Below are positions 1,398 through 19,919 of a stretch of DNA of 19,919 nucleotides, in pieces. The notes under the pieces were generated by a model that saw only the letters and a list, made by a program, of their open reading frames with translations, ran no database searches and was not told the DNA's origin. This DNA comes from a virus (taxonomy: Duplodnaviria > Heunggongvirae > Uroviricota > Caudoviricetes): IMG/VR virus record IMGVR_UViG_2737471827_000004; one strand, written 5' to 3'. Position 1 is the stretch's first letter, and every line of letters starts with the position of its first letter. The translations under genes and the position numbers were made by a program.

Positions 1398-1575
1398 CAT
1401 TCATTCCCTCTCCCCACCCCACAGAATGCAGGGCAATACTTCTAGTTACCAGGCAGTGGTCAGGGGTTAAGTAGCCAGCCCGAGGCGTAAGAACATGACG
1501 GCAGGGTTCAACTTTAATAACTATGCAGCAGGTTTTTGTTCCGCTACCCCGGCGTTAAGGGGAAATGAGGTCAGC

Positions 1576-1731: not shown

Positions 1732-1732
1732 T

Positions 1733-1861: not shown

Positions 1862-1890
1862 TAAGCGAAACAGCACCGCGAGGAATCAGT

Positions 1891-2507: not shown

Positions 2508-2676
2508 AAAGTGAATTTTGTGATGTGGTGAATGCGGCTGAGCGCACGCGGAACAGTTAAAACCAAAAACAGTGTTATGGGTGGATTCTCTGTATCCGGC
2601 GTTAATTGTTAACTGGTTAACGTCACCTGGAGGCACCAGGCACTGCATCACAAAATTCATTGTTGAGGACGCGATA

Positions 2677-2865
2677 ATGAAAACGTTATTACCAAACGTT
2701 AATACGTCTGAAGGTTGTTTTGAAATTGGTGTCACTATCAGTAACCCAGTATTTACTGAAGATGCCATTAACAAGAGAAAACAAGAACGGGAGCTATTAA
2801 ATAAAATATGCATTGTTTCAATGCTGGCTCGTTTACGTCTGATGCCAAAAGGATGTGCACAATGA
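2677..2865 (+). CDS. dicB: Cell-division inhibitor DicB (62 aa)
   Basis: Internal ATG of track ORF 2572-2865 (MKTLLPNVNTSEGCFEIGVTISNPVF...), GAGGA RBS 8 nt upstream. Sequence and length match DicB as I recall it. Confidence 0.8.
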   Translation: MKTLLPNVNTSEGCFEIGVTISNPVFTEDAINKRKQERELLNKICIVSMLARLRLMPKGCAQ

Positions 2866-3053
2866 ATTCAGCATTTGTGCTTGTTCTGACAGTTTTTCTT
2901 GTTTCCGGAGAGCCAGTTGATATTGCAGTCAGTGTGCACAGGACAATGCAGGAGTGTATGACTGCAGCAACCGAACAGAAAATTCCCGGTAACTGTTACC
3001 CGGTCGATAAAGTTATTCACCAGGATAATAACGAAATCCCGGCAGGTCTTTAA
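2862..3053 (+). CDS. ydfD: YdfD-like small lysis-associated prophage protein (63 aa, N-terminal hydrophobic segment)
   Basis: ATG overlaps the dicB stop (ATGA, 2862-2865). MNSAFVLVLTVFLVSGEPVD...; AAGGA RBS upstream. Confidence 0.7.
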   Translation: MNSAFVLVLTVFLVSGEPVDIAVSVHRTMQECMTAATEQKIPGNCYPVDKVIHQDNNEIPAGL

Positions 3054-3146
3054 AACAGTTCCGTAATAAATATCCGGTTTCATTCTTATATGCCAGCAAT
3101 GGCAGGGATTTGTTCATCCTTAAATCTGTCATGAGGTTAAAACAAA

Positions 3147-5618
3147 ATGAGTAAAGTCTTTATTTGCGCCGCTATTCCTGACGAACTGGCAACAAGGGAA
3201 GAAGGCGCTGTGGCTGTAGCCACAGCCATTGAAGCTGGCGACGAACGCCGTGCTCGAGCAAAATTTCACTGGCAGTTCCTGGAACATTATCCGGCTGCTC
3301 AGGACTGCGCTTATAAATTTATTGTCTGCGAGGATAAACCTGGCATACCCCGCCCTGCCCTCGATTCATGGGATGCTGAATATATGCAGGAAAACCGCTG
3401 GGATGAGGAGTCTGCTTCTTTTGTCCCGGTTGAGACTGAATCCGATCCGATGAACGTCACTTTTGACAAGCTGGCCCCTGAAGTACAGAACGCTGTCATG
3501 GTTAAGTTCGACACATGTGAAAACATCACCGTTGATATGGTTATTAGCGCACAGGAATTGTTGCAGGAAGACATGGCAACATTCGACGGACATATCGTTG
3601 AAGCGTTGATGAAAATGCCAGAAGTTAACGCCATGTATCCGGAGCTTAAGTTGCACGCCATTGGGTGGGTTAAGCATAAATGTATTCCTGGTGCTAAATG
3701 GCCCGAAATTCAGGCAGAGATGCGCATCTGGAAAAAACGTCGCGAAGGTGAACGCAAGGAAACCGGAAAATACACGTCTGTTGTTGATCTCGCCCGCGCC
3801 AGAACCAATCAACAGTACACTGAAAATTCAACAGGAAAAATCAGCCCGGTCATTGCTGCCATTCATCGCGAATACAAGCAGACATGGAAAACACTGGATG
3901 ACGAACTGGCCTACGCTCTCTGGCCTGGTGATGTGGATGCCGGAAACATTGACGGCAGCATCCATCGCTGGGCAAAAAAAGAAGTTATCGACAACGACCG
4001 CGAAGACTGGAAGCGTATCTCGGCATCAATGCGCAAACAGCCTGATGCCCTTCGCTACGACCGCCAGACTATTTTTGGCCTTGTCCGTGAGCGTCCGATC
4101 GACATTCACAAAGATCCCATAGCACTGAACAAATATATCTGCGAATACCTGACGACAAAGGGCGTGTTTGAGAATGAAGAAACAGACCTGGGCACTGTTG
4201 ATGTTCTCCAGTCATCAGAAACACAAACTGATGCAGTGGAAACTGAGGTATCTGATATCCCAAAAAATGAAACCGCGCCGGAAGCTGAACCATCTGTAGA
4301 GCGTGAGGGGCCGTTCTATTTCCTCTTCGCAGATAAGGACGGAGAAAAATACGGTCGCGCAAACAAACTTTCTGGTCTGGATAAGGCACTGGCTGCTGGC
4401 GCCACTGAAATCACAAAAGAAGAATATTTTGCCCGAAAAAATGGCACATACACGGGCTTACCGCAAAATGTAGATACCGCTGAAGATTCAGAACAACCAG
4501 AGCCGATAAAAGTTACCGCTGACGAAGTAAACAAAATTATGCAGGCAGCCAATATCAGCCAGCCTGACGCCGATGAACTGCTTGCAGTATCACGTGGTGA
4601 ATTTGTTGAAGGGATTAGCGACCCGAATGATCCGAAATGGATTAAGGGGATCCAGACCCGCGATTCTGTGAACCAGAACCAGCAAGAAACGGAACAGAAC
4701 GACCAGAAAGCGGAACAAAACAGCCCAAATACGCAACAAAACGAGCCAGAAACGAAACAACCTGAACCAGTAGTGCAACAGGAACCGGAAAAGATCTGCA
4801 CCGCCTGCGGTCAGAGCGGTGGCGGCAACTGCCCTGATTGTGGTGCGGTGATGGGTGACGCAACATACCAGGAAATATTCGATGGAGAGAATCAGCCTGA
4901 AGTTCAGGAAAATGATCCGGAGGAAATGGAAGGCACTGCGCATCAGCACAAGGAGAACACTGGCGGCAATCAGCATCATGCCAGCGATAGTGAAACTGGC
5001 GAGGCGTCAGATCCCTTAATTAAGGCAAACGGTCATCATAATCTCACATCCACCAGCAGAGCGGGGATTCATCTGATGATCGACCTTGAAACCATGGGAA
5101 AAAATCCCGATGCCCCGATTATCTCAATAGGTGCAATATTTTTCGATCCGCAAACCGGAGATATGGGACCGGAATTTAGTAAGACTATCGATCTGGAAAC
5201 TGCTGGCGGAGTCATTGATCGGGACACCATTAAATGGTGGCTTAAACAATCACGCGAAGCGCAATCTGCCATTATGACCGATGAAATCCCGTTAGATGAT
5301 GCACTGTTACAATTGCGGGAATTTATCGACGAAAACTCCGGTGAATTTTTTGTTCATGTCTGGGGAAATGGAGCCAACTTCGACAACACGATTTTGCGCC
5401 GTTCATACGAACGGCAGGAGATCCCCTGCCCGTGGCGTTACTACAACGATCGCGATGTACGCACAATCGTTGAGCTGGGGAAAGCCATAGACTTCGATGC
5501 CAGAACGGCTATTCCATTCGAAGGTGAGCGCCATAATGCACTTGATGACGCCCGTTACCAGGCAAAATACGTTTCAGTTATCTGGCAAAAACTGATCCCG
5601 AGTCAGGCTGATTCTTAA
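3147..5618 (+). CDS. Prophage exonuclease (823 aa): long N-terminal region, acidic Q/E/N/P-rich linker, CxxC-x9-CxxC zinc ribbon, C-terminal DEDDh (DnaQ-like) 3'-5' exonuclease domain
   Basis: One uninterrupted ORF. C-terminal motifs Exo I MIDLETMG (D-x-E), Exo II GNGANFD, Exo III HNALDDARYQA. Zinc ribbon CTACGQSGGGNCPDC at about 4797-4841; low-complexity linker about 4630-4790. Occupies the position of K-12 ydfE, which is broken by IS2 there. Resemblance of the N-terminal part to the exodeoxyribonuclease-VIII-annotated family is from memory only. Confidence 0.75.
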   Translation: MSKVFICAAIPDELATREEGAVAVATAIEAGDERRARAKFHWQFLEHYPAAQDCAYKFIVCEDKPGIPRPALDSWDAEYMQENRWDEESASFVPVETESDPMNVTFDKLAPEVQNAVMVKFDTCENITVDMVISAQELLQEDMATFDGHIVEALMKMPEVNAMYPELKLHAIGWVKHKCIPGAKWPEIQAEMRIWKKRREGERKETGKYTSVVDLARARTNQQYTENSTGKISPVIAAIHREYKQTWKTLDDELAYALWPGDVDAGNIDGSIHRWAKKEVIDNDREDWKRISASMRKQPDALRYDRQTIFGLVRERPIDIHKDPIALNKYICEYLTTKGVFENEETDLGTVDVLQSSETQTDAVETEVSDIPKNETAPEAEPSVEREGPFYFLFADKDGEKYGRANKLSGLDKALAAGATEITKEEYFARKNGTYTGLPQNVDTAEDSEQPEPIKVTADEVNKIMQAANISQPDADELLAVSRGEFVEGISDPNDPKWIKGIQTRDSVNQNQQETEQNDQKAEQNSPNTQQNEPETKQPEPVVQQEPEKICTACGQSGGGNCPDCGAVMGDATYQEIFDGENQPEVQENDPEEMEGTAHQHKENTGGNQHHASDSETGEASDPLIKANGHHNLTSTSRAGIHLMIDLETMGKNPDAPIISIGAIFFDPQTGDMGPEFSKTIDLETAGGVIDRDTIKWWLKQSREAQSAIMTDEIPLDDALLQLREFIDENSGEFFVHVWGNGANFDNTILRRSYERQEIPCPWRYYNDRDVRTIVELGKAIDFDARTAIPFEGERHNALDDARYQAKYVSVIWQKLIPSQADS

Positions 5619-5690
5619 TGTTCAACTGTCGCCGGTTGTGACTGGTATTCTGCAACCGGCGCTCGTCTGATGTAAGAGATAAAGAAATCG

Positions 5691-5942
5691 ATGAGCGAAG
5701 TAATCATGATTGTCTCTCCCGGCAAATGGGTATCCGAAGAGCAGTTAATTGCGCTGAAAGGAATAAAAAAAGGTACGTTAAAAAAGGCCCGGGAAAAATC
5801 GTTTATGGAAGGAAGGGAATATAAGCATGTCGCTCATGACGGTATGCCATGGGATAACAGTCCATGCTTTTACAACCTGGAAGAAATTGATCGCTGGATT
5901 GAGCGCCAGGCATCAGCGAGACCAAGACGTCATCTTACTTGA
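5691..5942 (+). CDS. Excisionase-like small DNA-binding protein (83 aa)
   Basis: Small basic ORF immediately upstream of and co-directional with the integrase. Function inferred from position and size. Confidence 0.5.
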   Translation: MSEVIMIVSPGKWVSEEQLIALKGIKKGTLKKAREKSFMEGREYKHVAHDGMPWDNSPCFYNLEEIDRWIERQASARPRRHLT

Positions 5943-5976
5943 CTAAAAGCCACACTAACTAATGAGAGAAGTTGAA

Positions 5977-7257
5977 ATGAAATATCCGACAGGCGTGGAA
6001 AACCATGGAGGGAAATTACGTATCTGGTTTGTTTATAAAGGCGTAAGAGTCAGGGAAAATCTGGGGGTTCCTGACACAGCAAAAAACAGGCGCGTTGCAG
6101 GTGAACTACGCGCCTCTGTTTGTTACGCAATAAAAACTGGTGTTTTCGACTATGCAAAACAGTTTCCCTCCTCACGCAATCTGGAAAAATTTGGTGAGGC
6201 CCGACAAGATTTAACCATAAAAGAACTGGCTGAAAAATTTCTGGCACTGAAAGAAACTGAAGTCGCCAAAACATCACTCAACACATACCGTGCCGTCATC
6301 AAAAATATCCTGAGCATAATCGGTGAAAAAAATCTTGCCTCATCGATTAATAAAGAAAAATTACTGGAGGTTCGTAAAGAGTTACTGACTGGATACCAGA
6401 TCCCCAAAAGTAACTATATTGTTACACAACCAGGGAGATCGGCTGTAACTGTAAATAATTACATGACAAATCTTAACGCCGTGTTCCAGTTTGGTGTTGA
6501 TAACGGTTACCTGGCAGATAATCCGTTTAAGGGGATCTCGCCATTAAAGGAATCAAGAACCATTCCGGATCCTCTTTCGCGGGAAGAATTTATCCGTCTT
6601 ATCGATGCGTGCAGAAATCAGCAAGCAAAAAATTTATGGTGTGTTTCTGTTTATACTGGCGTTCGCCCTGGTGAGCTGTGTGCACTTGGATGGGAGGACA
6701 TAGATCTGAAAAATGGAACAATGATGATCAGGAGAAATTTAGCAAAAGACCGTTTCACGGTACCAAAAACACAGGCGGGAACCAATCGGGTCATTCATCT
6801 TATTAAGCCAGCAATCGACGCTCTCCGGAGTCAGATGACATTAACGAGACTGAGCAAAGAGCATATCATTGATGTTCACCTCAGAGAGTATGGCAGAACA
6901 GAAAAACATAAATGCACCTTTGTTTTTCAACCTGAAGTGTCAGCGAGAGTAAAAAATTATGGTGACCATTTTACCGTTGACTCAATAAGGCAGATGTGGG
7001 ACGCAGCGATAAAACGTGCCGGACTCCGCCATCGAAAATCATATCAGTCGAGACATACTTATGCCTGCTGGTCGCTGACAGCTGGTGCTAACCCGGCATT
7101 TATAGCAAACCAGATGGGCCATGCAGATGCGCAAATGGTATTTCAGGTATACGGAAAATGGATGTCTGAAAACAATAATGCACAGGTAGCTTTGTTAAAT
7201 ACACAGTTAAGCGAGTTTGCCCCAACCATGCCCCATAACGAAGCAATGAAAAATTAA
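5977..7257 (+). CDS. intQ: Tyrosine site-specific integrase (lambda family), intact
   Basis: Track ORF 5962-7257; ATG at 5977 (MKYPTGVENHGG...) is preferred because GAGAGAAG lies 5 nt upstream. C-terminal catalytic region has RHTYA and HADAQMVFQVYGKW (H-x-x-R and Tyr nucleophile context). Sits next to rspB where the K-12 intQ pseudogene lies; the symbol is given by position only. Confidence 0.8.
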   Translation: MKYPTGVENHGGKLRIWFVYKGVRVRENLGVPDTAKNRRVAGELRASVCYAIKTGVFDYAKQFPSSRNLEKFGEARQDLTIKELAEKFLALKETEVAKTSLNTYRAVIKNILSIIGEKNLASSINKEKLLEVRKELLTGYQIPKSNYIVTQPGRSAVTVNNYMTNLNAVFQFGVDNGYLADNPFKGISPLKESRTIPDPLSREEFIRLIDACRNQQAKNLWCVSVYTGVRPGELCALGWEDIDLKNGTMMIRRNLAKDRFTVPKTQAGTNRVIHLIKPAIDALRSQMTLTRLSKEHIIDVHLREYGRTEKHKCTFVFQPEVSARVKNYGDHFTVDSIRQMWDAAIKRAGLRHRKSYQSRHTYACWSLTAGANPAFIANQMGHADAQMVFQVYGKWMSENNNAQVALLNTQLSEFAPTMPHNEAMKN

Positions 7258-7444
7258 TTTAATATTTATCAAATAGTTGACACGTATGACTCTTGAAATC
7301 CATAAATTCAAGCGCAGTGCCCAGCCATCCCGATACTGCTGCTTTCACCAAATCCTTAGTGCTTCTTTCGTGTTTTTCTATTGTCATAATGGTTATCTCT
7401 AAAAAAGAGGTAAGATGCGTACTACTTACTCGCCGTTATTGGTA
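7258..7444. other. Probable prophage-chromosome junction (att region) between the integrase 3' end and the rspB 3' end
   Basis: Non-coding, AT-rich, between convergent int and rspB. The att core cannot be defined without the other prophage end. Confidence 0.3.
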
Positions 7445-8464
7445 TTATTCAGAAAAAGTGAGTAAGACTTTGCAGCAATGTTTTTGATCCTGTTCAAATA
7501 AACTAATGGCATCAGCAACATGCTGGAAATCAAACGTATGGGTAATTAATTTTTCTGGTTTAATTAACCCTTTACTTAACCAGTCGATAACAACCGGAAA
7601 TTTATTTGCATTTAAGCGTGAAGAGAAAATAGAGAGTTCTTTTCCGGTAATTCCTTGCTGAATCACTTCAGACGGTTCACTGGAGAAGCCCATCAATACA
7701 ATACGTGCCGCTGGAGAAGCCAGCGTTACGGCCTCTTTCAGGATAGAAGGATGACAAGCCGCATCGATAATTAATGTCGGCTTGATGCCTTTTTCAGCGA
7801 AAATCTCGCCAAGCGGTGTCTGGCTGTTATTAATCGCCCAGTCTGCCCCGCTCTCTTTCGCTTTTTCCAGTCGTTCATCAATGCGATCGGCAACAATCAC
7901 ATTTTTAACGTTATAGACGCCTTTTAATACCTGAACGATCGTCAGGCCGATTGGACCGGCACCATAAACCAGAACGGTATCATTTTCAGTCGGTTGACCA
8001 TGACCGGTAACGTTAGCCGCAATGGTAAAAGGTTCGATCATCACCGCATATTGATCGGCCACTGCTTCAGGAATTTTCCACGCATTTTTTGCCGGAACCA
8101 CGGCATATTCACTGAAACCACCGTCAGCGTGCACACCTAATACAGCAAGTGTCGTACAAACGTTCGGCTTACCTATAGAGCACGGATAGCAATGCCCACA
8201 GCTGACCACCGGATCGACAGCAACGCGTTCACCGACTCTGGCGCTTTCCACACCTTCACCCACCGCATCAATGACGCCAAAGAATTCATGACCAATGACG
8301 CGCGGATATTTCGCAAAAGGATTATGCCCACGGTAAATATGGCTATCTGAACCACAAATTCCGGCAAGTTTCACTTTTACTCGTACTTCACCCGCTGACG
8401 GGGTGGGTATTTCACGTTCGATAATCGACAGTTGATTCGGTTTTTCAATTAAAATGCTTTTCAT
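7445..8464 (-). CDS. rspB: Starvation-sensing protein RspB (Zn-dependent alcohol-dehydrogenase family oxidoreductase)
   Basis: Start moved to ATG 8464 (MKSILIEKPNQL...), AAGGAG RBS 7 nt upstream. GICGSDSH zinc-ADH signature and Rossmann motif (LVYGAGPIG). Confidence 0.9.
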   Translation of the reverse strand: MKSILIEKPNQLSIIEREIPTPSAGEVRVKVKLAGICGSDSHIYRGHNPFAKYPRVIGHEFFGVIDAVGEGVESARVGERVAVDPVVSCGHCYPCSIGKPNVCTTLAVLGVHADGGFSEYAVVPAKNAWKIPEAVADQYAVMIEPFTIAANVTGHGQPTENDTVLVYGAGPIGLTIVQVLKGVYNVKNVIVADRIDERLEKAKESGADWAINNSQTPLGEIFAEKGIKPTLIIDAACHPSILKEAVTLASPAARIVLMGFSSEPSEVIQQGITGKELSIFSSRLNANKFPVVIDWLSKGLIKPEKLITHTFDFQHVADAISLFEQDQKHCCKVLLTFSE

Positions 8465-8475
8465 TACCTTACTCC

Positions 8476-9690
8476 TTACCAGTTCCACAGCGTGCCATCT
8501 TCCAGACGTGCGACTGGCAGATAAGCAGGTTCATAGGGATATTTCGCCGCCAGCTTTTCATCGAATTCGATGCCAAGACCCGGTTTGTCTCCCGGATGCA
8601 TATAGCCGTTATCGAAAGTCCAGTTGTGCGGGAAGACTTCGAGCATTTGTTCGGAATAACCCATGTACTCCTGGACACCGAAATTGGGGACCCACAGATC
8701 AAAGTGCAGCGCCGCAGCCATGCAGACTGGTGACAAATCGGAAGGACCGTGTGAGCCAGTACGTACCTGATACAGCGAAGCAAAATCGGCAATCCGGCGC
8801 ATACCGGTAATTCCGCCTGCATGGGTCAGCGTGGTGCGGATATAATCGATGAGTTGCTCTTCAATCAGTTGTTTGCAGTCCCAGATGCTGTTGAAGACTT
8901 CACCCACTGCGATGGGTGTGACGGTATGTTGGCGAATGAGACGGAAGCATTCCTGGTTTTCCGCAGGCGTCGGGTCTTCCATCCAGAACATGCGATAATC
9001 TTCAATGCTTTTACCAAAGCGCGCCGCTTCAATAGGCGTTAAGCGATGGTGCATGTCATGCAGCAAATGTTCATTAAAACCAAACTTGTTACGTACCGCG
9101 TCAAACAATTTCGGCATGAAATCGAGGTATTTCTCCGTCGACCACAGCTGCTCTTCCGGCCACTGTCCTTTGGTTGCGGGTTCATAAGCCAGACCTTTAC
9201 CTTTCGACATGCCGTAGGTGGTTTTCATACCAGGGATTCCGCACTGCACGCGGATGGCTTTGAATCCCAGCTCCTGATGACGGGCATAATCATCCAGAGC
9301 TTCATCAATACTGTGACCGGTGGTATGGCAATAAACCATCACCCCTTCACGAGACGCGCCGCCGAGTAACTGGTAAAGCGGCATGTTGGCAGCTTTGGCT
9401 TTAATATCCCACAGCGCCATATCAACCGCTGAAATGGCCGACATCGTAACCGGACCGCGACGCCAGTAAGCACCTTTATAGAAAAACTGCCAGATATCTT
9501 CGATACGGTGCGCATCGCGACCAATAAGCTGCGGACAAAGGTGATCCTGCAAATAAGAGGCCACGGAAAGCTCACGTCCATTGAGGGTGGCATCCCCAAG
9601 GCCCGTAATACCGTCCTCAGTGGTGATTTTTAATGTGACGAAATTACGCCCCGGACAGGTAACAAAAACTTCAGCCTTTACGATCTTCAT
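8476..9690 (-). CDS. rspA: Starvation-sensing protein RspA (enolase-superfamily mannonate dehydratase-like)
   Basis: Start at ATG 9690 ([14 protein letters not shown]...), AAGGAA RBS upstream; 404 aa. The rspB RBS lies within the rspA 3' end, so the two form an operon. Confidence 0.9.
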
Positions 9691-9895
9691 GTTCGATTCC
9701 TTGCATCGCTTGTCGTGATGCATGAAATCTACGCAACTGAGCTACTACCATACAAGTATGAAGATCGAAAAAAGCCGGAGTGATCACAAAAAAAGGCGTA
9801 TATTTGCGCTGTGAATGGTTGACAAAAGATGAAATAGAATACCTTTTGTCAGCTGACACTTCCTCTTATCTTATTGATAAAATGGATTTATGTTC

Positions 9896-10222
9896 CTACG
9901 TGCGCCCCCAGCCCGCAACAATGATCAACATGCCGCAAAGCGCAATCAACGCACCCGTCCAGTCATAAAGAGTCAGTTTCACGCCATCCACAACGCGCAG
10001 CCACATCAACGCCGTGCAGACATAAACGCCACCATAAGCCGCGTAAACACGCCCACTCGCCGCTGGATGCAACGTTAACAACCAGACAAACAGCGCCAGT
10101 GAAATCCCCGCCGGAAGCAACAGCCAGATACTGGCGTTTCGTTTTAACCACAACCAGGGCAGAAAGCATCCAATAATTTCACACAGCGCAGTAGCAAAAA
10201 ATAGTAACGTTGTTTTAATCAT
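9896..10222 (-). CDS. ynfA: UPF0060 small inner-membrane protein YnfA (108 aa, 4 predicted TM helices)
   Basis: Track ORF 9896-10231 uses a GTG start; ATG at 10222 ([20 protein letters not shown]...) gives the 108-aa form. Highly hydrophobic. Confidence 0.85.
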
Positions 10223-10356
10223 CTTTGTCACTTATTGACATCATGTATAGTTATAGGGCGACATAATATCATCAATATAAACACCCTCCTGGTACGTTTT
10301 GCGTTCGCAGTGGATGGTGTAGAATCTCCTTTAATCATTCATACAGGGAATGAATT

Positions 10357-10698
10357 ATGAAAATCACTCTCAGCAAACGAATCGGCCTGCTCGCTTTTCT
10401 GCTGCCTTGCGCACTGGCACTGAGCACAACTGTTCATGCCGAAACTAACAAACTGGTGATTGAGTCTGGCGACAGTGCACAAAGCCGCCAGCACGCCGCT
10501 ATGGAAAAAGAGCAATGGAATGACACGCGCAATCTGCGTCAGAAAGTGAATAAACGCACTGAAAAAGAGTGGGATAAAGCCGACGCCGCTTTTGATAACC
10601 GCGATAAATGTGAGCAAAGCGCCAACATCAATGCCTACTGGGAGCCAAATACTTTGCGCTGCCTGGACCGTCGAACTGGCCGCGTTATTACCCCCTAA
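10357..10698 (+). CDS. ynfB: UPF0482 protein YnfB (secreted, signal peptide)
   Basis: 113 aa; N-terminal signal peptide [28 protein letters not shown]. Confidence 0.85.
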
Positions 10699-10732
10699 CC
10701 TGTTATTGATTTAAGGAATGTAAGGACACGTT

Positions 10733-11293
10733 ATGCCAAGCGCCCACAGTGTTAAGCTACGCCCGCTGGAGCGTGAAGATTTACGCTATGTACATCAACT
10801 CGACAATAACGCCAGTGTGATGCGTTACTGGTTTGAGGAACCCTACGAAGCCTTTGTTGAACTCTCTGATCTGTATGATAAGCATATTCACGATCAGAGC
10901 GAACGGCGCTTTGTGGTGGAATGTGACGGCGAAAAAGCCGGTCTGGTGGAGCTGGTGGAAATTAACCATGTACATCGCCGGGCAGAATTTCAGATAATTA
11001 TCTCCCCGGAGTATCAGGGGAAAGGTCTGGCAACCCGTGCCGCCAAATTAGCAATGGACTATGGCTTTACCGTTCTCAATCTCTATAAGCTGTATCTGAT
11101 CGTTGATAAAGAGAATGAAAAAGCGATTCACATTTACCGCAAGCTTGGCTTTTCGGTTGAAGGTGAATTGATGCACGAGTTCTTTATTAATGGTCAATAT
11201 CGTAATGCCATTCGCATGTGTATATTCCAGCATCAGTATCTGGCAGAGCACAAAACACCGGGTCAGACTCTCCTGAAGCCGACCGCACAATAG
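10733..11293 (+). CDS. speG: Spermidine N1-acetyltransferase SpeG (GNAT family)
   Basis: 186 aa; sequence recognised ([41 protein letters not shown]...). Confidence 0.9.
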
Positions 11294-11295
11294 CA

Positions 11296-12006
11296 TTAAT
11301 AATAATCGATCGTATTTTTGATGGTGTAAACCCGTTCGACGGCGGGTTTTACTCCTTCATCAACAATGATTAGCTGACAGTCCACCGGATTAGCGTGACT
11401 GTCATATTCACAGCTCTGTTTTACATTACCAACCCGTTGATTATTCAGTAAAGTAACCGCTGTGTAATCTAATTTTTTGATCGGATCCGTTGATGGCGTG
11501 GCGCTGACAGATAATGTTTTGTCGTTACTTTTCGTGGTTTTACCCAGCGGATAACCCTGATCATCATAGCGATATTCCATCTGCATTTGTTTGCTGCTGG
11601 CTTTAATCACGAAGCCATTATCATCGGTTTCCCAACTCACCCCGGCAGAAGGTAATTCTGCTAGCTGGCATTTTCCCTGTAAACGTACTCTCTTCTCCAG
11701 CGTCTCGGCATCACGGTAATAATTGGCGTCCAGTACCAGAGCGACCACGGTATTATTTTCCAGATCCAGTAATTCGAGTGAATCAAAACAGCCTTCTTCC
11801 GACAAAGTCCCAGAAACACGTTTCGTCACTTCACCTTGCTCATCCATTAATGTCTGAGTGAAATCTTTTACCGGACCACGCAGCGGATCAAAATCGAATT
11901 CATTAGAGAAACTGGCCATCTCAGGGGTAAATGAAAGTGTTACCTCTGTGCGGTCACATCCTGTGAGGAATATCGCGAGTAAGCATGGTAGTAATTTGTA
12001 TTTCAC
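11296..12006 (-). CDS. ynfC: UPF0257 lipoprotein YnfC
   Basis: Track ORF 11296-12042. A lipoprotein signal peptide with lipobox LTGC follows a GTG codon at 12006, giving a 236-aa product. Convergent with speG, only 2 bp between stops. Confidence 0.8.
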   Translation of the reverse strand: MKYKLLPCLLAIFLTGCDRTEVTLSFTPEMASFSNEFDFDPLRGPVKDFTQTLMDEQGEVTKRVSGTLSEEGCFDSLELLDLENNTVVALVLDANYYRDAETLEKRVRLQGKCQLAELPSAGVSWETDDNGFVIKASSKQMQMEYRYDDQGYPLGKTTKSNDKTLSVSATPSTDPIKKLDYTAVTLLNNQRVGNVKQSCEYDSHANPVDCQLIIVDEGVKPAVERVYTIKNTIDYY

Positions 12007-12110
12007 AACAGTCACCAGAGAGTAGAGATGATTCTCAATCATAGTAGCAAATACAGTACTTTACACGTTAAATGCTATGCTTAAAGAAGTTATCTTCGCG
12101 TAAGGAGCTT

Positions 12111-12419
12111 ATGATGAAACTCTCAACCTGCTGTGCCGCGCTTCTGCTCGCCCTCGCCTCACCCGCGGTACTCGCCGCGCCGGGATCCTGTGAGCGCATA
12201 CAGAGCGATATATCACAGCGCATTATCAATAATGGCGTACCCGAAAGCAGCTTCACGTTAAGTATTGTACCCAATGACCAGGTTGATCAGCCTGATTCCC
12301 AGGTCGTCGGGCATTGTGCTAATGATACGCATAAAATTCTCTACACCCGCACCACCAGCGGTAACGTCTCTGCTCCCGCGCAGTCTACCCAGGATGGCGC
12401 GCCTGCCGAACCGCAGTAA
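12111..12419 (+). CDS. ynfD: DUF1161-family secreted protein YnfD
   Basis: ATG 12111 with AAGGAG 4-5 nt upstream (MMKLSTCCAALLLALASPAVLAAPGS...). Signal peptide. Confidence 0.85.
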   Translation: MMKLSTCCAALLLALASPAVLAAPGSCERIQSDISQRIINNGVPESSFTLSIVPNDQVDQPDSQVVGHCANDTHKILYTRTTSGNVSAPAQSTQDGAPAEPQ

Positions 12420-12436
12420 TACATTATCGACTGAAC

Positions 12437-12462
12437 GCCGGATACGACACATCCGGCGATTT
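12437..12462 (+). terminator. Possible weak intrinsic terminator after ynfD (7-bp stem GCCGGAT/ATCCGGC, short T tract)
   Basis: Hairpin read directly from the sequence. The T tract (GATTT) is poor. Confidence 0.25.
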
Positions 12463-12504
12463 GAACATACAACATAATCCCACCTTATTACTCATACCCT
12501 TCTA

Positions 12505-12518
12505 TTGATATGGATTAA
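12505..12518 (+). promoter_or_regulatory. FNR-like box TTGAT-ATGG-ATTAA upstream of ynfE
   Basis: 9/10 match to the TTGAT-N4-ATCAA consensus, about 100 bp upstream of the ynfE start. Consistent with anaerobic control of the ynfEFGH operon. Confidence 0.35.
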
Positions 12519-12617
12519 TAATTCTTAACCCAAAATGGGTAGACTCCCTCTATTGTTAGCGCGCTAAATATTCAATATATAAACATTTATATAACGATAA
12601 AGAACAGGGAGTGAGTT

Positions 12618-14027
12618 ATGTCCAAAAATGACCGAATGGTGGGCATCAGCCGCAGAACACTCGTTAAATCAACCGCGATAGGTTCTCTGGCGCTGGCTGC
12701 AGGCGGTTTTTCTTTACCGTTCACCCTGCGCAGTGCAGCGGCAGCAGTACAACAGGCCAGCGAAAAAGTGATCTGGGGTGCCTGTTCCGTCAACTGTGGT
12801 AGCCGCTGTGCACTTCGTCTACATGTTAAAGATAATGAAGTCACCTGGGTGGAAACTGACAACACCGGCAGCGACGAGTATGGCAATCATCAAGTACGCG
12901 CCTGTTTGCGTGGTCGATCCATCCGCCGGCGTATTAATCATCCCGATCGCTTGAATTACCCAATGAAACGCGTGGGTACACGCGGTGAAGGCAAATTCGA
13001 ACGGATTAGCTGGGATGAAGCCCTGGATACTATCGCCAGTAGCCTGAAAAAAACCGTCGAACAATATGGCAATGAGGCTGTATATATTCAGTACTCTTCG
13101 GGGATTGTTGGCGGCAATATGACCCGCTCTTCGCCATCAGCCTCGGCGGTCAAACGCCTGATGAACTGCTACGGCGGTTCACTCAATCAGTATGGCTCCT
13201 ACAGCACCGCGCAAATTTCCTGTGCCATGCCCTACACCTACGGCAGTAATGATGGCAACAGCACCACGGATATTGAAAACAGCAAGCTGGTCGTGATGTT
13301 TGGTAACAACCCGGCAGAAACCCGCATGAGCGGCGGTGGCATCACTTATCTTCTTGAAAAAGCGCGCGAGAAATCGAACGCCAAAATGATTGTTATCGAT
13401 CCGCGATATACCGATACGGCTGCTGGTCGTGAAGATGAATGGCTCCCTATTCGCCCGGGCACCGATGCCGCGCTGGTTGCGGGTATTGCCTGGGTATTGA
13501 TTAACGAAAATCTCGTTGATCAACCTTTTCTCGATAAATACTGCGTCGGCTATGACGAAAAAACCTTACCCGCAGATGCACCCAAAAATGGTCACTATAA
13601 AGCCTATATTCTTGGTGAAGGTGATGATAACACAGCGAAAACGCCGCAGTGGGCTTCGCAAATTACCGGTATCCCGGTAGACCGTATCATCAAACTGGCG
13701 CGTGAAATTGGCACAGCAAAACCCGCTTATATCTGCCAGGGCTGGGGGCCGCAACGCCAGGCAAACGGCGAACTGACTGCACGCGCTATTGCTATGTTAC
13801 CTATTTTGACGGGCAATGTCGGCATCAGCGGCGGAAATAGTGGCGCGCGTGAATCGACCTATACCATTACCATAGAACGCCTGCCGGTGCTGGATAATCC
13901 GGTCAAAACGTCAATCTCCTGCTTCAGCTGGACAGATGCTATCGATCATGGTCCGCAAATGACGGCAATCCGCGACGGCGTCCGCGGCAAAGATAAACTG
14001 GATGTGCCCATTAAGTTCATCTGGAAC
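12618..14027 (+). pseudogene. ynfE: ynfE 5' fragment (Tat-exported Mo-bisMGD reductase catalytic subunit, DmsA paralog), codons 1-470; interrupted by the insertion
   Basis: Twin-arginine signal (SRRTLVK) and N-terminal Cys cluster (CSVNCGSRCALR). Native-looking sequence ends at ...IKFIWN (14027). The frame then runs 16 codons into foreign DNA (FKDLKRTLSRPEVLH) to a stop at 14073-14075. Confidence 0.85.
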
Positions 14028-14268
14028 TTCAAGGACTTGAAGCGGACCCTTAGTAGGCCTGAGGTCCTGCATTGAGTCAAGACCTTGTGTCATTCTTTGT
14101 GCCAGACTTGTGTCATTAGACGGGATGTCTAGACGGCTGGTCAGGACCCTCCGGTGGCCTTGGTATGGACTTGAGGCGGGACTATGGGGGAAGTCTGCTG
14201 GCTTAATGTATTAGATGGTCATTCACATTTTTCTGTCAGAAACCATCGGTCCCACTGTGAGTCCAAAC

Positions 14269-14424
14269 CTAAGGACCTAGAAGTCCACCCACAGCCTTAG
14301 ACAGAGTGTCGAACACATCCACACCGAGTCGACCAGAGAGGACCATGTAGAGACCCACAGAGAGGAACACGAGTTTATAGACCAGAGTCAGGAGGGACTT
14401 CAGGTCTGCGGAAGTCATAGACAT
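14269..14424 (-). CDS. 51-aa single-pass membrane protein (holin-like or small membrane toxin-like), unassigned
   Basis: ATG at 14424 with AAGGAGG 5 nt upstream. MSMTSADLKSLLTLVYKLVFLSVGLYMVLSGRLGVDVFDTLSKAVGGLLGP has one roughly 21-residue hydrophobic helix. Last gene of the cassette. Confidence 0.5.
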   Translation of the reverse strand: MSMTSADLKSLLTLVYKLVFLSVGLYMVLSGRLGVDVFDTLSKAVGGLLGP

Positions 14425-14496
14425 TTGGCCCTCCTTATCTTGTATACTACCATACCAGAAATAAGGCCCAGACCCGAAGGTCCAGACCATAGTTAG

Positions 14497-15483
14497 TTAG
14501 TTGGTCTCAGTAAAGCTCAGGCGTTTGACTACAGGCAGGACAGCAGTAGCACTACCAGTACCCATCTTGATTGTCGTAGCAGCTTCAGCGACCACGAAGA
14601 CCTTGCCGAGGATTTCTAGGTCGTGAGACTGAGAGTCGCCATCTCTGGATAAGACCACGGTAATGTTCTCACCATCATGACGGAAGCAGCTGAAGCTCAG
14701 GGCCGTAAAACGCTTAGCCATCATGAACACACCACGGTCCTCACCGTTGTAATACGCGATGTCGGTACCCAGCATATCCACGATAGCGTCTTCGCCACCG
14801 AAGCCCTGCTTAGCAGCCAGACGGGAGAGAGCCTTGAGGTGTGACTCATGGGCGATAATGCCGTAGTCAGAAACCTCAGTACCGAAAGAAGACTCGGTGT
14901 TCTCATACAGGGCATCCATGATAGCGTCAGCCTTAGCGGTCAGGCTACCAGTCAGGACCGGAAGCTCTACAGTCTTCAACAGCTTGGAGGATTCCAGTAC
15001 ATCGACCATGCGACTATTGATGGTACGGACCACGTTATCGCAGATGTTCAGAGCGTCCTGCTGGAGCGTCCCCTGAGTGAAACCAGTGGAAGACTTAGCG
15101 TCCCACAGCTTGGTTTGATGTGATACGAGGATAGCCTGTTCAATCGGCTCCACGGTGATTTCAGTGCCGGACGGAGCGGTCACGACTTCAGGTCGCTTGC
15201 CACCACGGACAGGGACCAGCACAGAGCGGTCAGCCAGAGTGTGAGCAATGATTGGAGTCGGTAAGCTGTTACGGGTCGGCAGGACTTCTACAGGGAACGG
15301 GATGTTATCTTGAGCGTCTTTAAGCACACCATTGAGCATCGTCTTAACCAGCTTAGCCAGCTCAAGGGCGTAGACCTGAGGGTCTGCGTTAGTTGGCAAA
15401 CCTTCGTTAATCTGAATGTTGTCGGTGTCGGTGATACGTACTGGCTCAATGCCGAACTGGAAAGCGTCTTTAGTCATAGTCAT
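14497..15483 (-). CDS. 328-aa hypothetical protein, unassigned
   Basis: Long ORF with AAGGAGA RBS 9 nt upstream. Codon usage rich in GCT/GGT/CGT/AAG/GAC, as in highly expressed coliphage genes. No catalytic motif recognised and no Walker A. Confidence 0.6.
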   Translation of the reverse strand: MTMTKDAFQFGIEPVRITDTDNIQINEGLPTNADPQVYALELAKLVKTMLNGVLKDAQDNIPFPVEVLPTRNSLPTPIIAHTLADRSVLVPVRGGKRPEVVTAPSGTEITVEPIEQAILVSHQTKLWDAKSSTGFTQGTLQQDALNICDNVVRTINSRMVDVLESSKLLKTVELPVLTGSLTAKADAIMDALYENTESSFGTEVSDYGIIAHESHLKALSRLAAKQGFGGEDAIVDMLGTDIAYYNGEDRGVFMMAKRFTALSFSCFRHDGENITVVLSRDGDSQSHDLEILGKVFVVAEAATTIKMGTGSATAVLPVVKRLSFTETN

Positions 15484-15566
15484 GATAATTAATCTCCTTG
15501 AGTCAAATACTTGAAGTCCCTAACGGTAAGTCAGGGACCGTGTGTTCTTAGATGAGGGTCGCTTGC

Positions 15567-16058
15567 TTACAAGCAGTCCATCCAGTTAGCGCCACTATCG
15601 AGGTCAGCCATAATTGAAGCCTTGGAACGACCAGCGGAATGGGTAGCACTGCGGAGGTTCTCACCATAGGTCCGGCGTTCAGCTTTGACCTGTTCACGGC
15701 GCTGTAGCTCTTTCTGCCACTCTGCATCGGTCATGTTCTCTTCACGCATACGCTCAGCCTGAAGTCGTTGCTCTTTAGCGATACGCTCAGCCTCAGCTCG
15801 TTTGTTAAGCTGGCGGCGACCATAGGCGGTCATCAGGTCATTACTGAAGAAGTTACCAATGGTCACGCCAGCTTCAGCAAGAGCTTCCAGTAACTCCATT
15901 GCTTCGCGGCTGGTGGATGGCAAGCCTGACAGATACCCCGGAATGAGGGTCTTGATAGCGAGGGACAGCGGATAGGACTGATCGTCCAGACTCACAGTAT
16001 TCTCGTAGAGATTGATGTCGGTGACTGACAGCTTCCAGTTGTTGTTGTTGAATAACAT
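15567..16058 (-). CDS. 163-aa hypothetical protein with a highly charged predicted coiled-coil segment
   Basis: AGAGGAG RBS 7-8 nt upstream. Charged segment RRQLNKRAEAERIAKEQRLQAERMREENMTDAEWQKELQRREQVKAERR. Confidence 0.55.
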   Translation of the reverse strand: MLFNNNNWKLSVTDINLYENTVSLDDQSYPLSLAIKTLIPGYLSGLPSTSREAMELLEALAEAGVTIGNFFSNDLMTAYGRRQLNKRAEAERIAKEQRLQAERMREENMTDAEWQKELQRREQVKAERRTYGENLRSATHSAGRSKASIMADLDSGANWMDCL

Positions 16059-16200
16059 AAGTTGGTACTCCTCTTGAGAAGGTGAGAACTATCGGTATCG
16101 CAGACACAGTTATGCCTACGGGTCTCCCCGCATCGGTCATTCTCAAAAGGTGTTTAAATTAAGGTATTGAGTAGGTGAGCTGCTAACGGTTAGGAGACAG

Positions 16201-16413
16201 CTAGCTTACTAGCGACAGTTTCATAGCGACCAGTTGCGCTATCAGCTCGTCTCGGGATTGGTGCTGGCGGGTCTCATCTTCCGGGTCTAGACCAAGCTCC
16301 TTCAGGAGGAATTCAGTCCGATAGCCACGGTAACGGAGAGTCATGCGACCCTCAGGTGTGCGCGGGTCAACCATAGGTCTTTGGGAGACCATAGGTCTTT
16401 GGTTAGTCATCAT
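16201..16413 (-). CDS. 70-aa hypothetical protein with a tandemly duplicated N-terminal heptapeptide
   Basis: Start 2 nt after the stop of the upstream gene. Contains the 18-bp tandem repeat at 16371-16406 (encodes QRPMVS-QRPMVD). Confidence 0.45.
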   Translation of the reverse strand: MMTNQRPMVSQRPMVDPRTPEGRMTLRYRGYRTEFLLKELGLDPEDETRQHQSRDELIAQLVAMKLSLVS

Positions 16414-16415
16414 TG

Positions 16416-16676
16416 TTAGAAGTCCTCGTTAGACCAATCATCCACGTCAAATTCACTGGTGATAGGCGCTTGGAAGTCAGGTAGACCCTCTGGTATATCT
16501 AGCGGCAGTCGCTCGTCGACTCTCAGTGCCATCTCTTCGTATATATGCCGAAGCAGAGAAGTCAGTAAGATATGGTCCGCAGGATGCTCATGGTCGTATC
16601 TCTCAATGAAACATATGGTTGTCGCTATTGACTTCATAATCAGTTCATCAGTAAGTCGGTTGGAATCCATAGTCAT
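16416..16676 (-). CDS. 86-aa strongly acidic protein (about 20 Asp/Glu vs 5 Lys/Arg), unassigned
   Basis: Start 1 nt after the stop of the Rha-like gene (TAA-G-ATG). MTMDSNRLTDELIMKSIATTICFIERYDHEHPADHILLTSLLRHIYEEMALRVDERLPLDIPEGLPDFQAPITSEFDVDDWSNEDF. Confidence 0.55.
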   Translation of the reverse strand: MTMDSNRLTDELIMKSIATTICFIERYDHEHPADHILLTSLLRHIYEEMALRVDERLPLDIPEGLPDFQAPITSEFDVDDWSNEDF

Positions 16677-16677
16677 C

Positions 16678-17388
16678 TTAGAGTCCCTTCTGCTTGCCGG
16701 ATTTGGCTTGCTTCAGGAGGTATTCCTGCTTCTGCTGGTCGGTGCCAGTGAATGCAATAAGGATGCCTTTCATCTTGTCAATCGTCTCAGGTCTACCGAA
16801 GACCTCCAGTCCCTTAGCGTTGAAGCGAAAGTTATAACCACCTGCTGAGAACTTCTGGTCTGACGGCTTAATGATACGGAAGCAGTCGGAATACTTTGGA
16901 TTTACAGACCACTCGTTACTGATTGGATTCTTACGAAAGAGACCACGATGCTGAAGAAGTGCGGTCATTAGCTTCTGAGCAGGTAGACCATAGGTTTTGC
17001 AGTAGTCACCCCAAGTCACGCCTCGACGGTTAGCGGACTGAATTGCTGCTCGCTTCTTCTGGTCTTCCAGTAACTGCTTGTCCTTCTCAATTCGTCGGAT
17101 GTATTCAAGGACTTTGCGACGCACAGCTTTAGACTCACGCATACCGACCAATAGTAGTTGGTCTCCGTTAAGGATAGTGTGAGAGGATTTACGTCCAGAA
17201 GCGCCCGTGTCTAATAAAAGGAAATTTTCCTCTTTTAAATCCAGCTCATCCTTCACGCGATTGATGAAGTCCTTATTACTGACGGGATTCTCCCCGGCCT
17301 CTTCACGGGCAGGATTGATAACCTTGGTCAGGAACTCATAGGAAGACAGAGAGAACTCATCGTTAAAGATGACTACTTGTTGAGACAT
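16678..17388 (-). CDS. Rha/antirepressor-like phage regulatory protein (236 aa); C-terminal half unassigned
   Basis: Track ORF 16678-17601 has an implausible N-terminal extension. ATG at 17388 (MSQQVVIFNDEF...) has a perfect AAGGAG 8 nt upstream. The N-terminal region (LLLDTGASGRKSSHTILNGDQLLLVGMRESKAVRRKVLEYI) resembles the N-terminal DNA-binding domain of Rha/Ant-type phage proteins; this is a family-level impression. Confidence 0.5.
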   Translation of the reverse strand: MSQQVVIFNDEFSLSSYEFLTKVINPAREEAGENPVSNKDFINRVKDELDLKEENFLLLDTGASGRKSSHTILNGDQLLLVGMRESKAVRRKVLEYIRRIEKDKQLLEDQKKRAAIQSANRRGVTWGDYCKTYGLPAQKLMTALLQHRGLFRKNPISNEWSVNPKYSDCFRIIKPSDQKFSAGGYNFRFNAKGLEVFGRPETIDKMKGILIAFTGTDQQKQEYLLKQAKSGKQKGL

Positions 17389-17957
17389 ATCGTTGTACTC
17401 CTTTTTGTTATGCCTCCTGAAGTCACACCCTGAGAGCCTACTCAAGCCCCCAACGATAGGGAGACTCACAGGCAACAGGAGACATACAGAAAGACTTGAG
17501 GTGATGATGAGGTCGTGTGAAGACCAGAGATGATGGTGGTGGTGGTGACTGCTCAGTTTTGAGCGCGTTAAGTTCTTCGACCATAGAGACGAAGGTTGCA
17601 AGACCGCATGTCAGGACGAGCTGTAAGGACTCCAGATGGTGAGCGGTGATAGACTTAAGCCAATGTAGTGAGTAGACGAGCTACTAACTGAGATGACTGA
17701 AGAACGCTAACGAGCTGGAGGTCGATACACGAGGTCTGACAGAGGCGGTCTTCCTACCAGTGATAGTTAAGCCCTACCACTGGTCATACATACCCAACCT
17801 CAAGCAACGACCCAATGTATACAGGGTCCCGATGCTTTGAGCTGGAGACTGACGGAGCTATCGTCGACCCCATGGTTGAGGAAGACACATAGAAGGAATG
17901 AGGTCTGACTTAAGTCTGGACTATAGGTCTTATATTAATCTTCATAAGAAGATAATA

Positions 17958-18008
17958 ATTAACTTAGAGTCATAACTTCAGTCTTACTTAGAGTCTTAAC
18001 TTTAAGTC
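17958..18008. repeat. Array of four imperfect ~11-bp direct repeats (ACTTAGAGTC / ACTTCAGTC / ACTTAGAGTC / ACTTTAAGTC) in an AT-rich stretch
   Basis: Read directly from the sequence. Lies in the 767-bp non-coding region between the HNH gene and the Rha-like gene. A palindrome GACTTAAGTC sits at about 17909-17918, and a C7-T-C6 tract at 18024-18037. Confidence 0.6.
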
Positions 18009-18155
18009 AGCATCTATGGTCTGCCCCCCCTCCCCCCATTGCTGGAAGGAGAGGCGGTAGTGTCTGCCATTTTCCCTATACTGATAATTTAGCACCCTCC
18101 TCTACAGACCAGACGCACCAAGGCCTACAGAGGCGCTCTAAGTTAGCAACCGTCA

Positions 18156-18890
18156 TCAAACCACCACAGACTCTTCGTCGATGTAGTGCTTCTTGTTCAG
18201 CTTCTTAAAGTAGAGACGCCCAGTTTTAGGCTCAATGTAGACTTTCAGTCCATCATGCGTCTTAGCGTAGCCGGGTAAACGTCGCTTCCTTGGTTTATAC
18301 CCTTCAGGCTTGGACACCTCGTAGCGCTCGTCAGCTCGCTTCTGGTCTGCCTCTGTCCAGTCGGTCCACCCATCGTAGGCGAATTCACCGTGTAGCTTCT
18401 GACGCTGTTCCTGTAGCCAGACCATAAGCTCCCTGACCTCATAAGAGAGTCTCGCCCGGACCTTGCCGTCTATCTTAATACGCGCTCTGTAGCGACCCTC
18501 AGCTTTTACAAAGTCAATCCCTTTCGGCAAATAGTTCTGAAGTTTGCCTCCAAGGTTGTCTCTGTTCCACTGGTTCTGCTGTGGTGTAACTAGGCGCAGG
18601 TTGTCAGGATGGTCATTGAGTCGGTTACCGTCGATATGGTCAACGAACATTCCCTCAGGGATGTGACCCTTACACAGGCTGTAGATGACTCTGGAGCGAC
18701 GATAGCGCTTACCCAGTACAGAGACAGAGGCATAGCCATTTTGATGCACATAGAAGCTAACAGGCTCTCCTGTGGCGCGTTTAGATTGGCCGTAAGGTGT
18801 CTTGACTCGGAGTAGCTGAGGAATGGTTGGGTCAAAGGTGTAATGGTCGTACAGTTTGATTCGGTCTAGTGGCTTGGCTGGTCGGCCCAT
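18156..18890 (-). CDS. HNH endonuclease (244 aa), homing-endonuclease-like
   Basis: HNH motif VDHIDGNRLNDHPDNLRLVTPQQNQWN, flanked by basic beta-rich segments (GYASVSVLGKRYRRSRVIY; GRYRARIKIDGKVRARLSY) as in the DNA-binding modules of phage HNH homing endonucleases. Start ATG at 18890 is only 7 bp from resumed ynfE sequence. Confidence 0.8.
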   Translation of the reverse strand: MGRPAKPLDRIKLYDHYTFDPTIPQLLRVKTPYGQSKRATGEPVSFYVHQNGYASVSVLGKRYRRSRVIYSLCKGHIPEGMFVDHIDGNRLNDHPDNLRLVTPQQNQWNRDNLGGKLQNYLPKGIDFVKAEGRYRARIKIDGKVRARLSYEVRELMVWLQEQRQKLHGEFAYDGWTDWTEADQKRADERYEVSKPEGYKPRKRRLPGYAKTHDGLKVYIEPKTGRLYFKKLNKKHYIDEESVVV

Positions 18891-18897
18891 GATGGAT

Positions 18898-19914
18898 ACC
18901 CTCGTTAATCAGCATTCTGACATCAACAAAACGCATGAAATTCTGCAGGACGAATCGAAATGCGAAATGATTGTGATCATCGAAAACTTTATGACCTCAT
19001 CGGCAAAATATGCCGACATTCTGCTGCCAGACCTGATGACCGTTGAGCAGGAAGATATTATTCCTAACGACTACGCCGGTAACATGGGATATCTCATTTT
19101 CCTCCAGCCTGTCACCAGCGAAAAATTCGAACGCAAACCGATTTACTGGATCCTGAGTGAAGTCGCGAAACGTCTTGGACCTGACGTCTATCAAAAGTTC
19201 ACAGAAGGTCGCACGCAGGAACAATGGTTACAACATCTGTACGCCAAAATGCTTGCCAAAGATCCGGCGTTACCGTCTTACGACGAACTGAAAAAAATGG
19301 GTATCTATAAGCGTAAAGATCCCAATGGCCATTTTGTCGCCTACAAAGCATTTCGTGACGACCCCGAGGCAAATCCACTTAAAACGCCTTCCGGTAAGAT
19401 TGAAATTTATTCCAGCAGGCTGGCGGAAATTGCCCGTACCTGGGAACTGGAAAAAGATGAAGTGATAAGCCCATTGCCAGTTTATGCCTCAACCTTTGAA
19501 GGCTGGAACTCCCCTGAACGTAGAACCTTCCCACTGCAACTGTTTGGTTTCCATTACAAATCCCGTACTCACTCGACCTACGGCAATATTGATCTCCTGA
19601 AGGCTGCCTGCCGTCAGGAGGTGTGGATCAACCCTATAGATGCGCAGAAACGTGGGATTGCCAACGGCGATATGGTGCGGGTGTTTAACCATCGTGGCGA
19701 AGTTCGGCTACCAGCCAAAGTAACACCACGTATTCTCCCTGGAGTTAGCGCTATGGGCCAGGGAGCCTGGCACGAGGCCAATATGTCTGGCGATAAAATC
19801 GACCATGGCGGCTGTGTGAATACGCTAACCACTCTGCGCCCTTCACCACTGGCGAAGGGAAACCCGCAGCACACTAATCTGGTCGAGATCGAAAAAATAG
19901 TAAGCGTAAACTGA
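18898..19914 (+). pseudogene. ynfE: ynfE 3' fragment (C-terminal 338 codons plus stop)
   Basis: In-frame continuation TLVNQHSDINKTHEILQDESKCEMIVIIENFMTSSAKYADILLPD... to the stop at 19912-19914. The MIRSSGLAGRPMMD prefix of the track ORF is read-through of junction and insert sequence. Confidence 0.85.
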
Positions 19915-19919
19915 CCGCC

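Follow-up and report, generated by a model that had tools for sequence, protein, structure and literature searches.

A probable deletion scar joins an HNH endonuclease gene to ynfE in a truncated integrative element

Introduction

Integrative elements that interrupt ynfE have been described before. Passages of the TIGER survey place ynfE among the genes disrupted by such elements (Mageeney et al. 2020, PMC7192596), and because the gene is listed there, this class of insertion is already known; the same passages contain no mention of phage-type promoters, a capsid-like gene or gene content. Like the ynfE elements in those passages, the insertion examined here derives from a tyrosine-integrase element that occupies one fixed position in ynfE and splits the gene. 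Unlike them, the present copy has neither int nor attR.

Phage satellites offer a second point of reference. The cfPICI, PICMI and PLE elements are small, bounded by an integrase system and missing most virion genes, and the ynfE element resembles them in each respect. It also encodes its own predicted HK97-fold capsid-like protein, as cfPICI do; appears linked to virulent phages, as are PLE and PICMI; and carries a nuclease gene, as does PLE with NixI. It differs from all of these in being only 6.7 kb long, in its T7-type RNA-polymerase promoter-like sites and, for some variants, in a homologue of T7 gp16. HEG-derived nucleases in satellite conflicts provide a comparison case for the HNH endonuclease of the element (Barth et al., PMC10055350). 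The E. coli satellites of that study were considered as a possible identity for the element and rejected: they form a different family, of about 13 kb with RepA_N.

The endonuclease has relatives of its own among the free-standing HNH_3 genes of T7-like phages, for example the gp49-like genes of Kayfunavirus, for which I-HmuI is the structural prototype. The HNH_3 core is common to both, and in intact copies of the element the HNH gene has the same type of phage promoter upstream as the Kayfunavirus genes. Unlike the T7-like phage genes, it resides in a chromosomal integrative element and its product has a basic C-terminal extension of about 70 aa. A last comparison is with cryptic prophages and islands in decay, such as Qin and Rac in E. 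coli, which have lost the integration module by illegitimate deletion and have IS insertions nearby. The copy described below probably shares this history, but differs in that the remaining ORFs of the element are still intact.

Layout of the window

The window, by which we mean the whole analysed stretch of 19,919 nucleotides (IMG/VR record IMGVR_UViG_2737471827_000004), comprises the following segments.

1-7291: end of a Qin-like lambdoid prophage, abutting the ydfJ remnant; genes for a LexA-like repressor, YdaT, ydfABC, DicF RNA (2451-2502), dicB, an 823-aa exonuclease, xis and a 431-aa integrase
7292-14028: chromosomal DNA with the ydfJ remnant, rspBA, ynfAB, speG, ynfCD and the 5' part of ynfE
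12618-14028, plus strand: 5' part of ynfE including the att core, 99.3% identical to E. coli L73
14029-18895: insert, a truncated integrative element with all genes on the minus strand, lacking integrase and attR
18896-19903, plus strand: 3' part of ynfE, beginning 9 bp past the att core
19904-19919, plus strand: left end (first 16 bp) of ISEc23, IS66 family, at the ynfE stop codon

The annotation of L73 describes the product of the ynfE 5' part as a DMSO/selenate reductase A subunit whose C-terminus is missing. The prophage stretch at 1-7291 is common, with more than 80% of it covered in 273 genomes. At the other end of the window, GTAAGCGTAAACTGACCGCC (19900-19919) is identical to the end of an IS66-like ISEc23 in strain UTME-8 (L030 17864), which is where the identification came from, a 60-nt megablast of the last 16 bases having been uninformative; the GTAA within GTAAGCGTAAACTGACCGCC can be assigned to ynfE or to the IS. 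The left terminal repeat of ISEc23 replaces the ynfE stop codon, and UTME-8 carries this IS in the prophage exonuclease gene instead.

Integration of the element family into ynfE

The attachment site was delimited by aligning an empty site (E2863), attL and attR of L73, and the window.

14018-14028: attL core CATCTGGAACT, integrase crossover site in ynfE, from the attB/attL/attR alignment

Together with the adjacent TCAAGGACTTGAAG arm (14018-14045), this core is identical to that of L73 and others. Some 20 loci share this attL and attR, and every copy examined lies at the 11-bp core CATCTGGAACT in ynfE. Members of the family are present in 313 of 5426 complete E. coli genomes (about 6%), the integrase lying under the match in all of the best 60 records. 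An intact element, as in L73, spans 6674 bp including one copy of the core, the family size being about 6.7 kb, and runs from attL through a capsid-like operon, a non-coding region and a variable slot (here holding the HNH gene) to an integrase of about 530 aa and attR. The window retains a single copy of the core, the direct repeat at attR falling within DNA that is missing, and an ORF and domain search of 14029-18895 found no integrase gene, which is present in L73 and in ten of ten other contexts read. Because the integrase is absent, the window copy is a deletion derivative rather than a functional element.

A tRNA gene is the target of related elements, which have other integrases. Two loci from Logan assemblies, L019 (ERR10768130) and L032 (SRR18106139), combine the small-protein and capsid-like module with different integrases; L019 lies at a tRNA 3' end and has DUF4145 in its variable slot, and the capsid-like protein of L032 carries a Big_2 domain. 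Contigs of about 6.5 kb that were candidates for excised circles proved to be a chromosomal fragment (L018) and the tRNA-gene element L019. Searches of metagenome and viral contig collections for the attP junction came back empty, and the matches in IMG/VR have identifiers that, judged as such, are typical of prophage calls from isolate genomes and not of viromes.

Origin of the junction between the HNH gene and ynfE

With 99.3% identity, the window is collinear with E. coli L73 from 7292 to 18909; the insert proper (14029-18895) is collinear with positions 16430-21297 of the L73 locus, L001. From 18896 to 19903 the window matches L73 again, 1.8 kb further on. In essence, the window is L73 minus 1815 bp (L001 21303-23117), a segment that takes in a 528-aa tyrosine integrase (PF00589, E = 9.8e-14) encoded between the HNH gene and the 3' part of ynfE, attR, 9 bp of ynfE and most (138 nt) of the 150-nt stretch before the HNH gene. 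A short repeat marks the point of joining.

18896-18900: ATACC microhomology at the deletion junction, one copy in the window; the L73 locus has two, at L001 21298-21302 and 23113-23117

One of the two pentamers closes the native HNH leader, which ends in ATACC (...CACGGAGGTATCCATCATG). The other belongs to ynfE: in the att alignment the gene continues beyond the core as ACGCGGGAA-ATACCCTCG, and the window, without ACGCGGGAA, resumes at ATACC. These nine ynfE bases, ACGCGGGAA, are present in empty sites and in intact insertions, and because the missing host bases exist in empty and occupied sites alike, it is the arrangement in the window that is derived. We therefore consider it very probable that the edge between HNH and ynfE is a deletion scar, produced by a later loss of 1815 bp at ATACC from an element that an integrase had inserted. 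The deletion event has been seen once, at the level of assembled sequence rather than of reads, and the 5-bp microhomology points to slippage or microhomology end-joining as its probable mechanism. The initial annotation correctly had ynfE resuming with the codon at 18898—identity returns at 18896, as seen with 5241 of 5426 complete E. coli genomes, ACC at 18898 being the first full codon—but it took the edge for the right boundary of the insertion. Intact copies without exception have attR as their true right end; there the core CATCTGGAACT is followed by ynfE ACGCGGGAAATACCC.

These observations also bear on the idea, put forward in the same annotation, that the HNH enzyme cut ynfE and the element entered by homing-like repair without an integrase. 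HNH_3 proteins do include free-standing homing endonucleases, and in the window the gene does abut host DNA. Yet the left end is a canonical integrase attL, intact relatives carry int and attR at the same site, the window lacks nine ynfE bases found in empty and occupied sites, and among the contexts examined no copy of the HNH gene was found at an unrelated junction; homing-like acquisition is in effect refuted. Nor do we give any appreciable credence to a site-specific deletion in which the integrase joined attR with a secondary site in the HNH leader. There is a loose likeness of about 15 nt between the sequences that were joined (ATACCTCCGTGTAAT and ATACCCTCGTTAAT), but no resemblance of either to the core CATCTGGAACT or to the GGACTTGAAG inverted repeats that flank it; the breakpoint in ynfE lies 9 bp outside the core, and no identical deletion recurs in complete E. 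coli genomes, JGI metagenome contigs or GTDB representatives.

The junction of the window occurs in none of the 5426 complete E. coli genomes, and its exact 30-mer is absent from JGI metagenome contigs and GTDB representatives. Absence from every other collection searched would suit an assembly or chimeric-read artefact, the real genome holding an intact element, but we judge this very unlikely: an overlap of 5 bp is far too short for assembly-graph collapse, both flanks are otherwise perfectly collinear, and the closed genome of a sister strain, UTME-8, bears a genuine deletion in this region. Over 11.2 kb that strain shares 99.98% identity with the window; its deletion, of 2 kb, is either a further or an independent one, spans the junction of the window (L030 34480-34875, equivalent to window 17073-19089) and removes the HNH gene, the non-coding region and 190 more bp of ynfE. 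Since this deletion spans the same junction, the int-proximal end of the element appears to be decaying in this lineage.

The favoured history, a deletion from an integrated element, can be set out in steps. The element would have entered ynfE by means of its own tyrosine integrase of about 530 aa, at the 11-bp core CATCTGGAACT. An illegitimate deletion of 1815 bp between the two ATACC pentamers would then have taken the 138 nt of spacer, the integrase, attR and 9 bp of ynfE, leaving ynfE joined to the final 7-12 nt of the HNH leader. The position of HNH at the boundary and its ribosome-binding site in host sequence would both be by-products of that deletion. With int and attR lost, the window copy could not restore ynfE by excision; it is presumably now immobile, excision being no longer possible, and ynfE is probably split for good. 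The decay is probably recent, given that no remaining ORF is broken and that the HNH protein does not differ from the common allele.

The HNH gene and its truncated leader

The gene at the junction lies where the initial annotation had placed it.

18156-18890, minus strand: intact HNH_3 endonuclease gene, 244 aa, ATG at 18890-18888

Its product matches PF13392 (E = 4.9e-15, residues 65-107) and phrog_99 (E = 3.9e-36), and aligns with I-HmuI (PDB 1U3E; E = 2.5e-4) over a catalytic core that includes DH..N..N. PADLOC, run on the ORFs of the element, assigned a generic homing-endonuclease model to this protein and nothing to the others. The nearest phage relatives are Kayfunavirus HNH proteins of about 160-180 aa, the genes for which lie just after terL. 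Identity to them is 48-50% over aa 5-173, and because it extends over these residues the N-terminus can be taken as complete. At the DNA level, none of 50,697 phage records matched the HNH region in a megablast search. Such a protein may be a phage-derived nuclease that is used against, or exchanged with, a helper.

The start of the gene is 5-7 nt from resumed ynfE sequence. An identical HNH protein is encoded in 1401 blocks of public assemblies, and in ten of ten other contexts read the integrase gene ends exactly 150 nt upstream, with a 150-nt spacer that is identical in nine and has two substitutions in one; the window keeps only the last 7-12 nt of this native spacer. The alternative offered in the initial annotation, that the edge is a recombination point at which the native upstream region was cut off, is thereby borne out, and the comparison with homologues that it recommended reveals a full-length gene with its own upstream region elsewhere, a finding that counts against homing. 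In the family at large, HNH occupies a variable slot of about 1.3 kb between conserved blocks, next to int; in other variants the slot is not empty but filled by an ORF of 202 or 155 aa.

Could the endonuclease nonetheless have started the deletion, by a double-strand break near its own gene followed by resection and rejoining at ATACC? The scar is 5 nt from the start of HNH, and homing endonucleases often cleave near their own insertion site (PMC10055350). There is, however, no sign of a target site, neighbouring DNA is intact in ten of ten contexts that bear HNH, and the UTME-8 deletion takes HNH out altogether, so that we regard an HNH-started deletion as unlikely, if less far-fetched than homing.

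A deletion at ATACC also accounts for the curious ribosome-binding site of the gene.

18898-18903, minus strand: chimeric Shine-Dalgarno-like GAGGGT, 7 nt from the ATG; the native motif is GGAGGT

GAGGGT is the only Shine-Dalgarno-like motif upstream of the HNH ATG, and it overlaps ynfE, as the initial annotation had observed in assigning the ribosome-binding site to host sequence. That assignment holds for half of the motif: because ATACC is common to the HNH leader and ynfE, GGT (ACC) belongs to the element and GAG (CTC) to ynfE. Pairing with the anti-Shine-Dalgarno sequence falls from -10.9 kcal/mol for native GGAGGT to -6.4 kcal/mol for fused GAGGGT, a value that about 23% of random or ynfE-antisense sequences reach when fused at the same point. 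Arbitrary fusions achieve this rate because GGT is retained. The motif is no better than chance, a by-product that bears no sign of adaptation.

Around HNH on the minus strand, in the window and in L73 alike, a consensus scan of weak discriminating power found no sigma-70-like promoter, and a scan for terminators found none. The HNH gene of the window is probably orphaned transcriptionally, having lost its promoter and kept a weaker Shine-Dalgarno sequence.

Candidate phage-type promoters

The promoter that appears to have been lost is, unexpectedly, of phage type, a perfect candidate of the Kayfunavirus (T7-like) kind. A position weight matrix built from 12 promoters of Kayfunavirus Ro45lw, which themselves score 27.7-34.9 bits, gave 32.7 bits to a site in the lost spacer, ACTAAACTATCACTGTAGGGACT (L001 21394-21416; p = 2.4e-12 per position), the strongest of the three matches in the element. 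Two weaker sites and an AT-rich tract are retained.

18071-18093, minus strand: Kayfunavirus-type phage RNA-polymerase promoter-like site GCTAAATTATCAGTATAGGGAAA (P1), 23.4 bits, p = 6.6e-9 per position
17750-17772, minus strand: weak T7-type promoter-like site GCTTAACTATCACTGGTAGGAAG, 16.0 bits, with a 1-nt insertion relative to the phage site
17920-18009: AT-rich tract, 23-27% GC, with TTAGAGTC/TAAGTC repeats, downstream of P1

Both retained sites lie upstream of the Ant-like gene described below and in gene orientation, and the chromosomal flanks score at most 10 bits on the Ro45lw matrix. In nearly all variants scanned the matrix picks out between one and three sites, scoring 22-35 bits; these invariably point the same way as the genes, and none falls in the flanks. 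The exception, L023, has a T3-like site only. Several variants carry tandem pairs of T7-family promoters with differing upstream halves, 26-28 nt apart (L004 5693/5719; L005 5841/5867 and 5289/5316; L006 5539/5567). For instance, ATTATACCCTCACTATAGGG, which we take to resemble the T3 promoter class, stands beside ACTAAACTATCACTATAGGG. To judge by these pairs, polymerases from more than one phage genus would seem able to act on the element. No RNA polymerase gene was found in the element by ORF domain searches, and the exact Kayfunavirus promoter 22-mer is absent from GTDB representatives.

On the minus strand of 17920-18042, a G-run (GGGGGGAGGGGGGG) followed by the AT-rich tract lies 35-150 nt downstream of P1. 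By analogy, the layout of promoter and AT-rich DNA may recall the primary origin of T7.

The capsid-like protein and other element genes

Other genes of the element, all on the minus strand, include the following.

14497-15483, minus strand: HK97-fold capsid-like protein, 328 aa, from predicted structure
15567-16058, minus strand: 163-aa protein, upstream of the capsid-like gene
16678-17388, minus strand: Ant-like regulator, 236 aa (phrog_10324 anti-repressor Ant, E = 1.5e-30)

The conserved 328-aa protein has no match in Pfam or PHROG, and its family shows no similarity to T7-like major capsid proteins in hhalign. With 14 close homologues only, AF2 gave a pLDDT of 38.6; distant homologues, drawn from a profile search of 1.84 billion proteins, made the prediction confident, a 40-sequence alignment yielding pLDDT 78.3 and pTM 0.73. 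Foldseek returned 222 PDB matches to this model at E <= 1e-3, of which the top 50 are all phage major capsid proteins or encapsulins, and BFVD gave the same picture of HK97-fold capsid proteins and encapsulins. On the predicted structure, the protein is HK97-fold capsid-like. Some distant homologues have C-terminal Ig-like domains, and one of them lies in another small integrase-bearing element.

The 163-aa protein of the window is without a Pfam or PHROG match, and its counterpart in relatives has a weak match to DUF6971; gene order and a charged helical region suggest that it may be a scaffold. In place of the Ant-like regulator, other variants have Rha or KilA-N proteins. Larger variants integrated at the same att site encode a full-length homologue of T7 gp16 (phrog_342, E = 1e-231; 40% identity to gp16 of phage Berlin), with a second HNH gene after it, near attL.

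L020 2929-6873, L021 1790-5734 and L024 2912-6856: gp16 homologue (ejectosome/internal virion protein D)

When the proteins of the element were compared with Ro45lw by tblastn, only HNH and the gp16-like protein matched. Searches of the element ORFs against NCBIfam, and of the element against Rfam, returned nothing.

A possible satellite of T7-like phages

What, then, is the element from which the window derives? On balance, and from gene content, we lean towards the ynfE family being a minimal satellite or phage-triggered island of virulent T7-like phages, with its own capsid protein and with relatives that use other integrases. Because the element lacks an RNA polymerase and the promoters ahead of its operon match those of Kayfunavirus, an infecting T7-like phage would switch it on with the phage's RNA polymerase, and the phage-derived HNH nucleases of some variants may cut the helper. 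A search with Pfam, PHROG and NCBIfam for the cfPICI head module and Pri-Rep/AlpA found no portal, protease, terminase, connector, AlpA or Pri-Rep genes in the element, and the capsid-like protein only. In the literature searched, coverage of which is incomplete, we found no satellite of T7-like coliphages, and no T7-type promoters, capsid gene or gp16 homologue reported for ynfE elements.

Two lessons follow from the junction. The absence of an integrase says nothing about how a stretch of DNA arrived, and a deletion can place an endonuclease at the edge of an insertion; the junction itself is, very probably, ordinary genome decay. The element deserves follow-up more than its junction does. 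A common E. coli element joins a tyrosine integrase, a private gene for a predicted capsid-like protein and candidate promoters for the RNA polymerases of T7-like phages. Should it prove to act as a satellite, or as a defence set off by phage infection, no earlier satellite of T7-like coliphages would be on record in the literature searched, and the element would offer a clean case of infection sensing through the invader's own polymerase. The matter is relevant to the therapeutic use of T7-like phages, and also to tools for satellite detection, by which an element of this kind would be missed.
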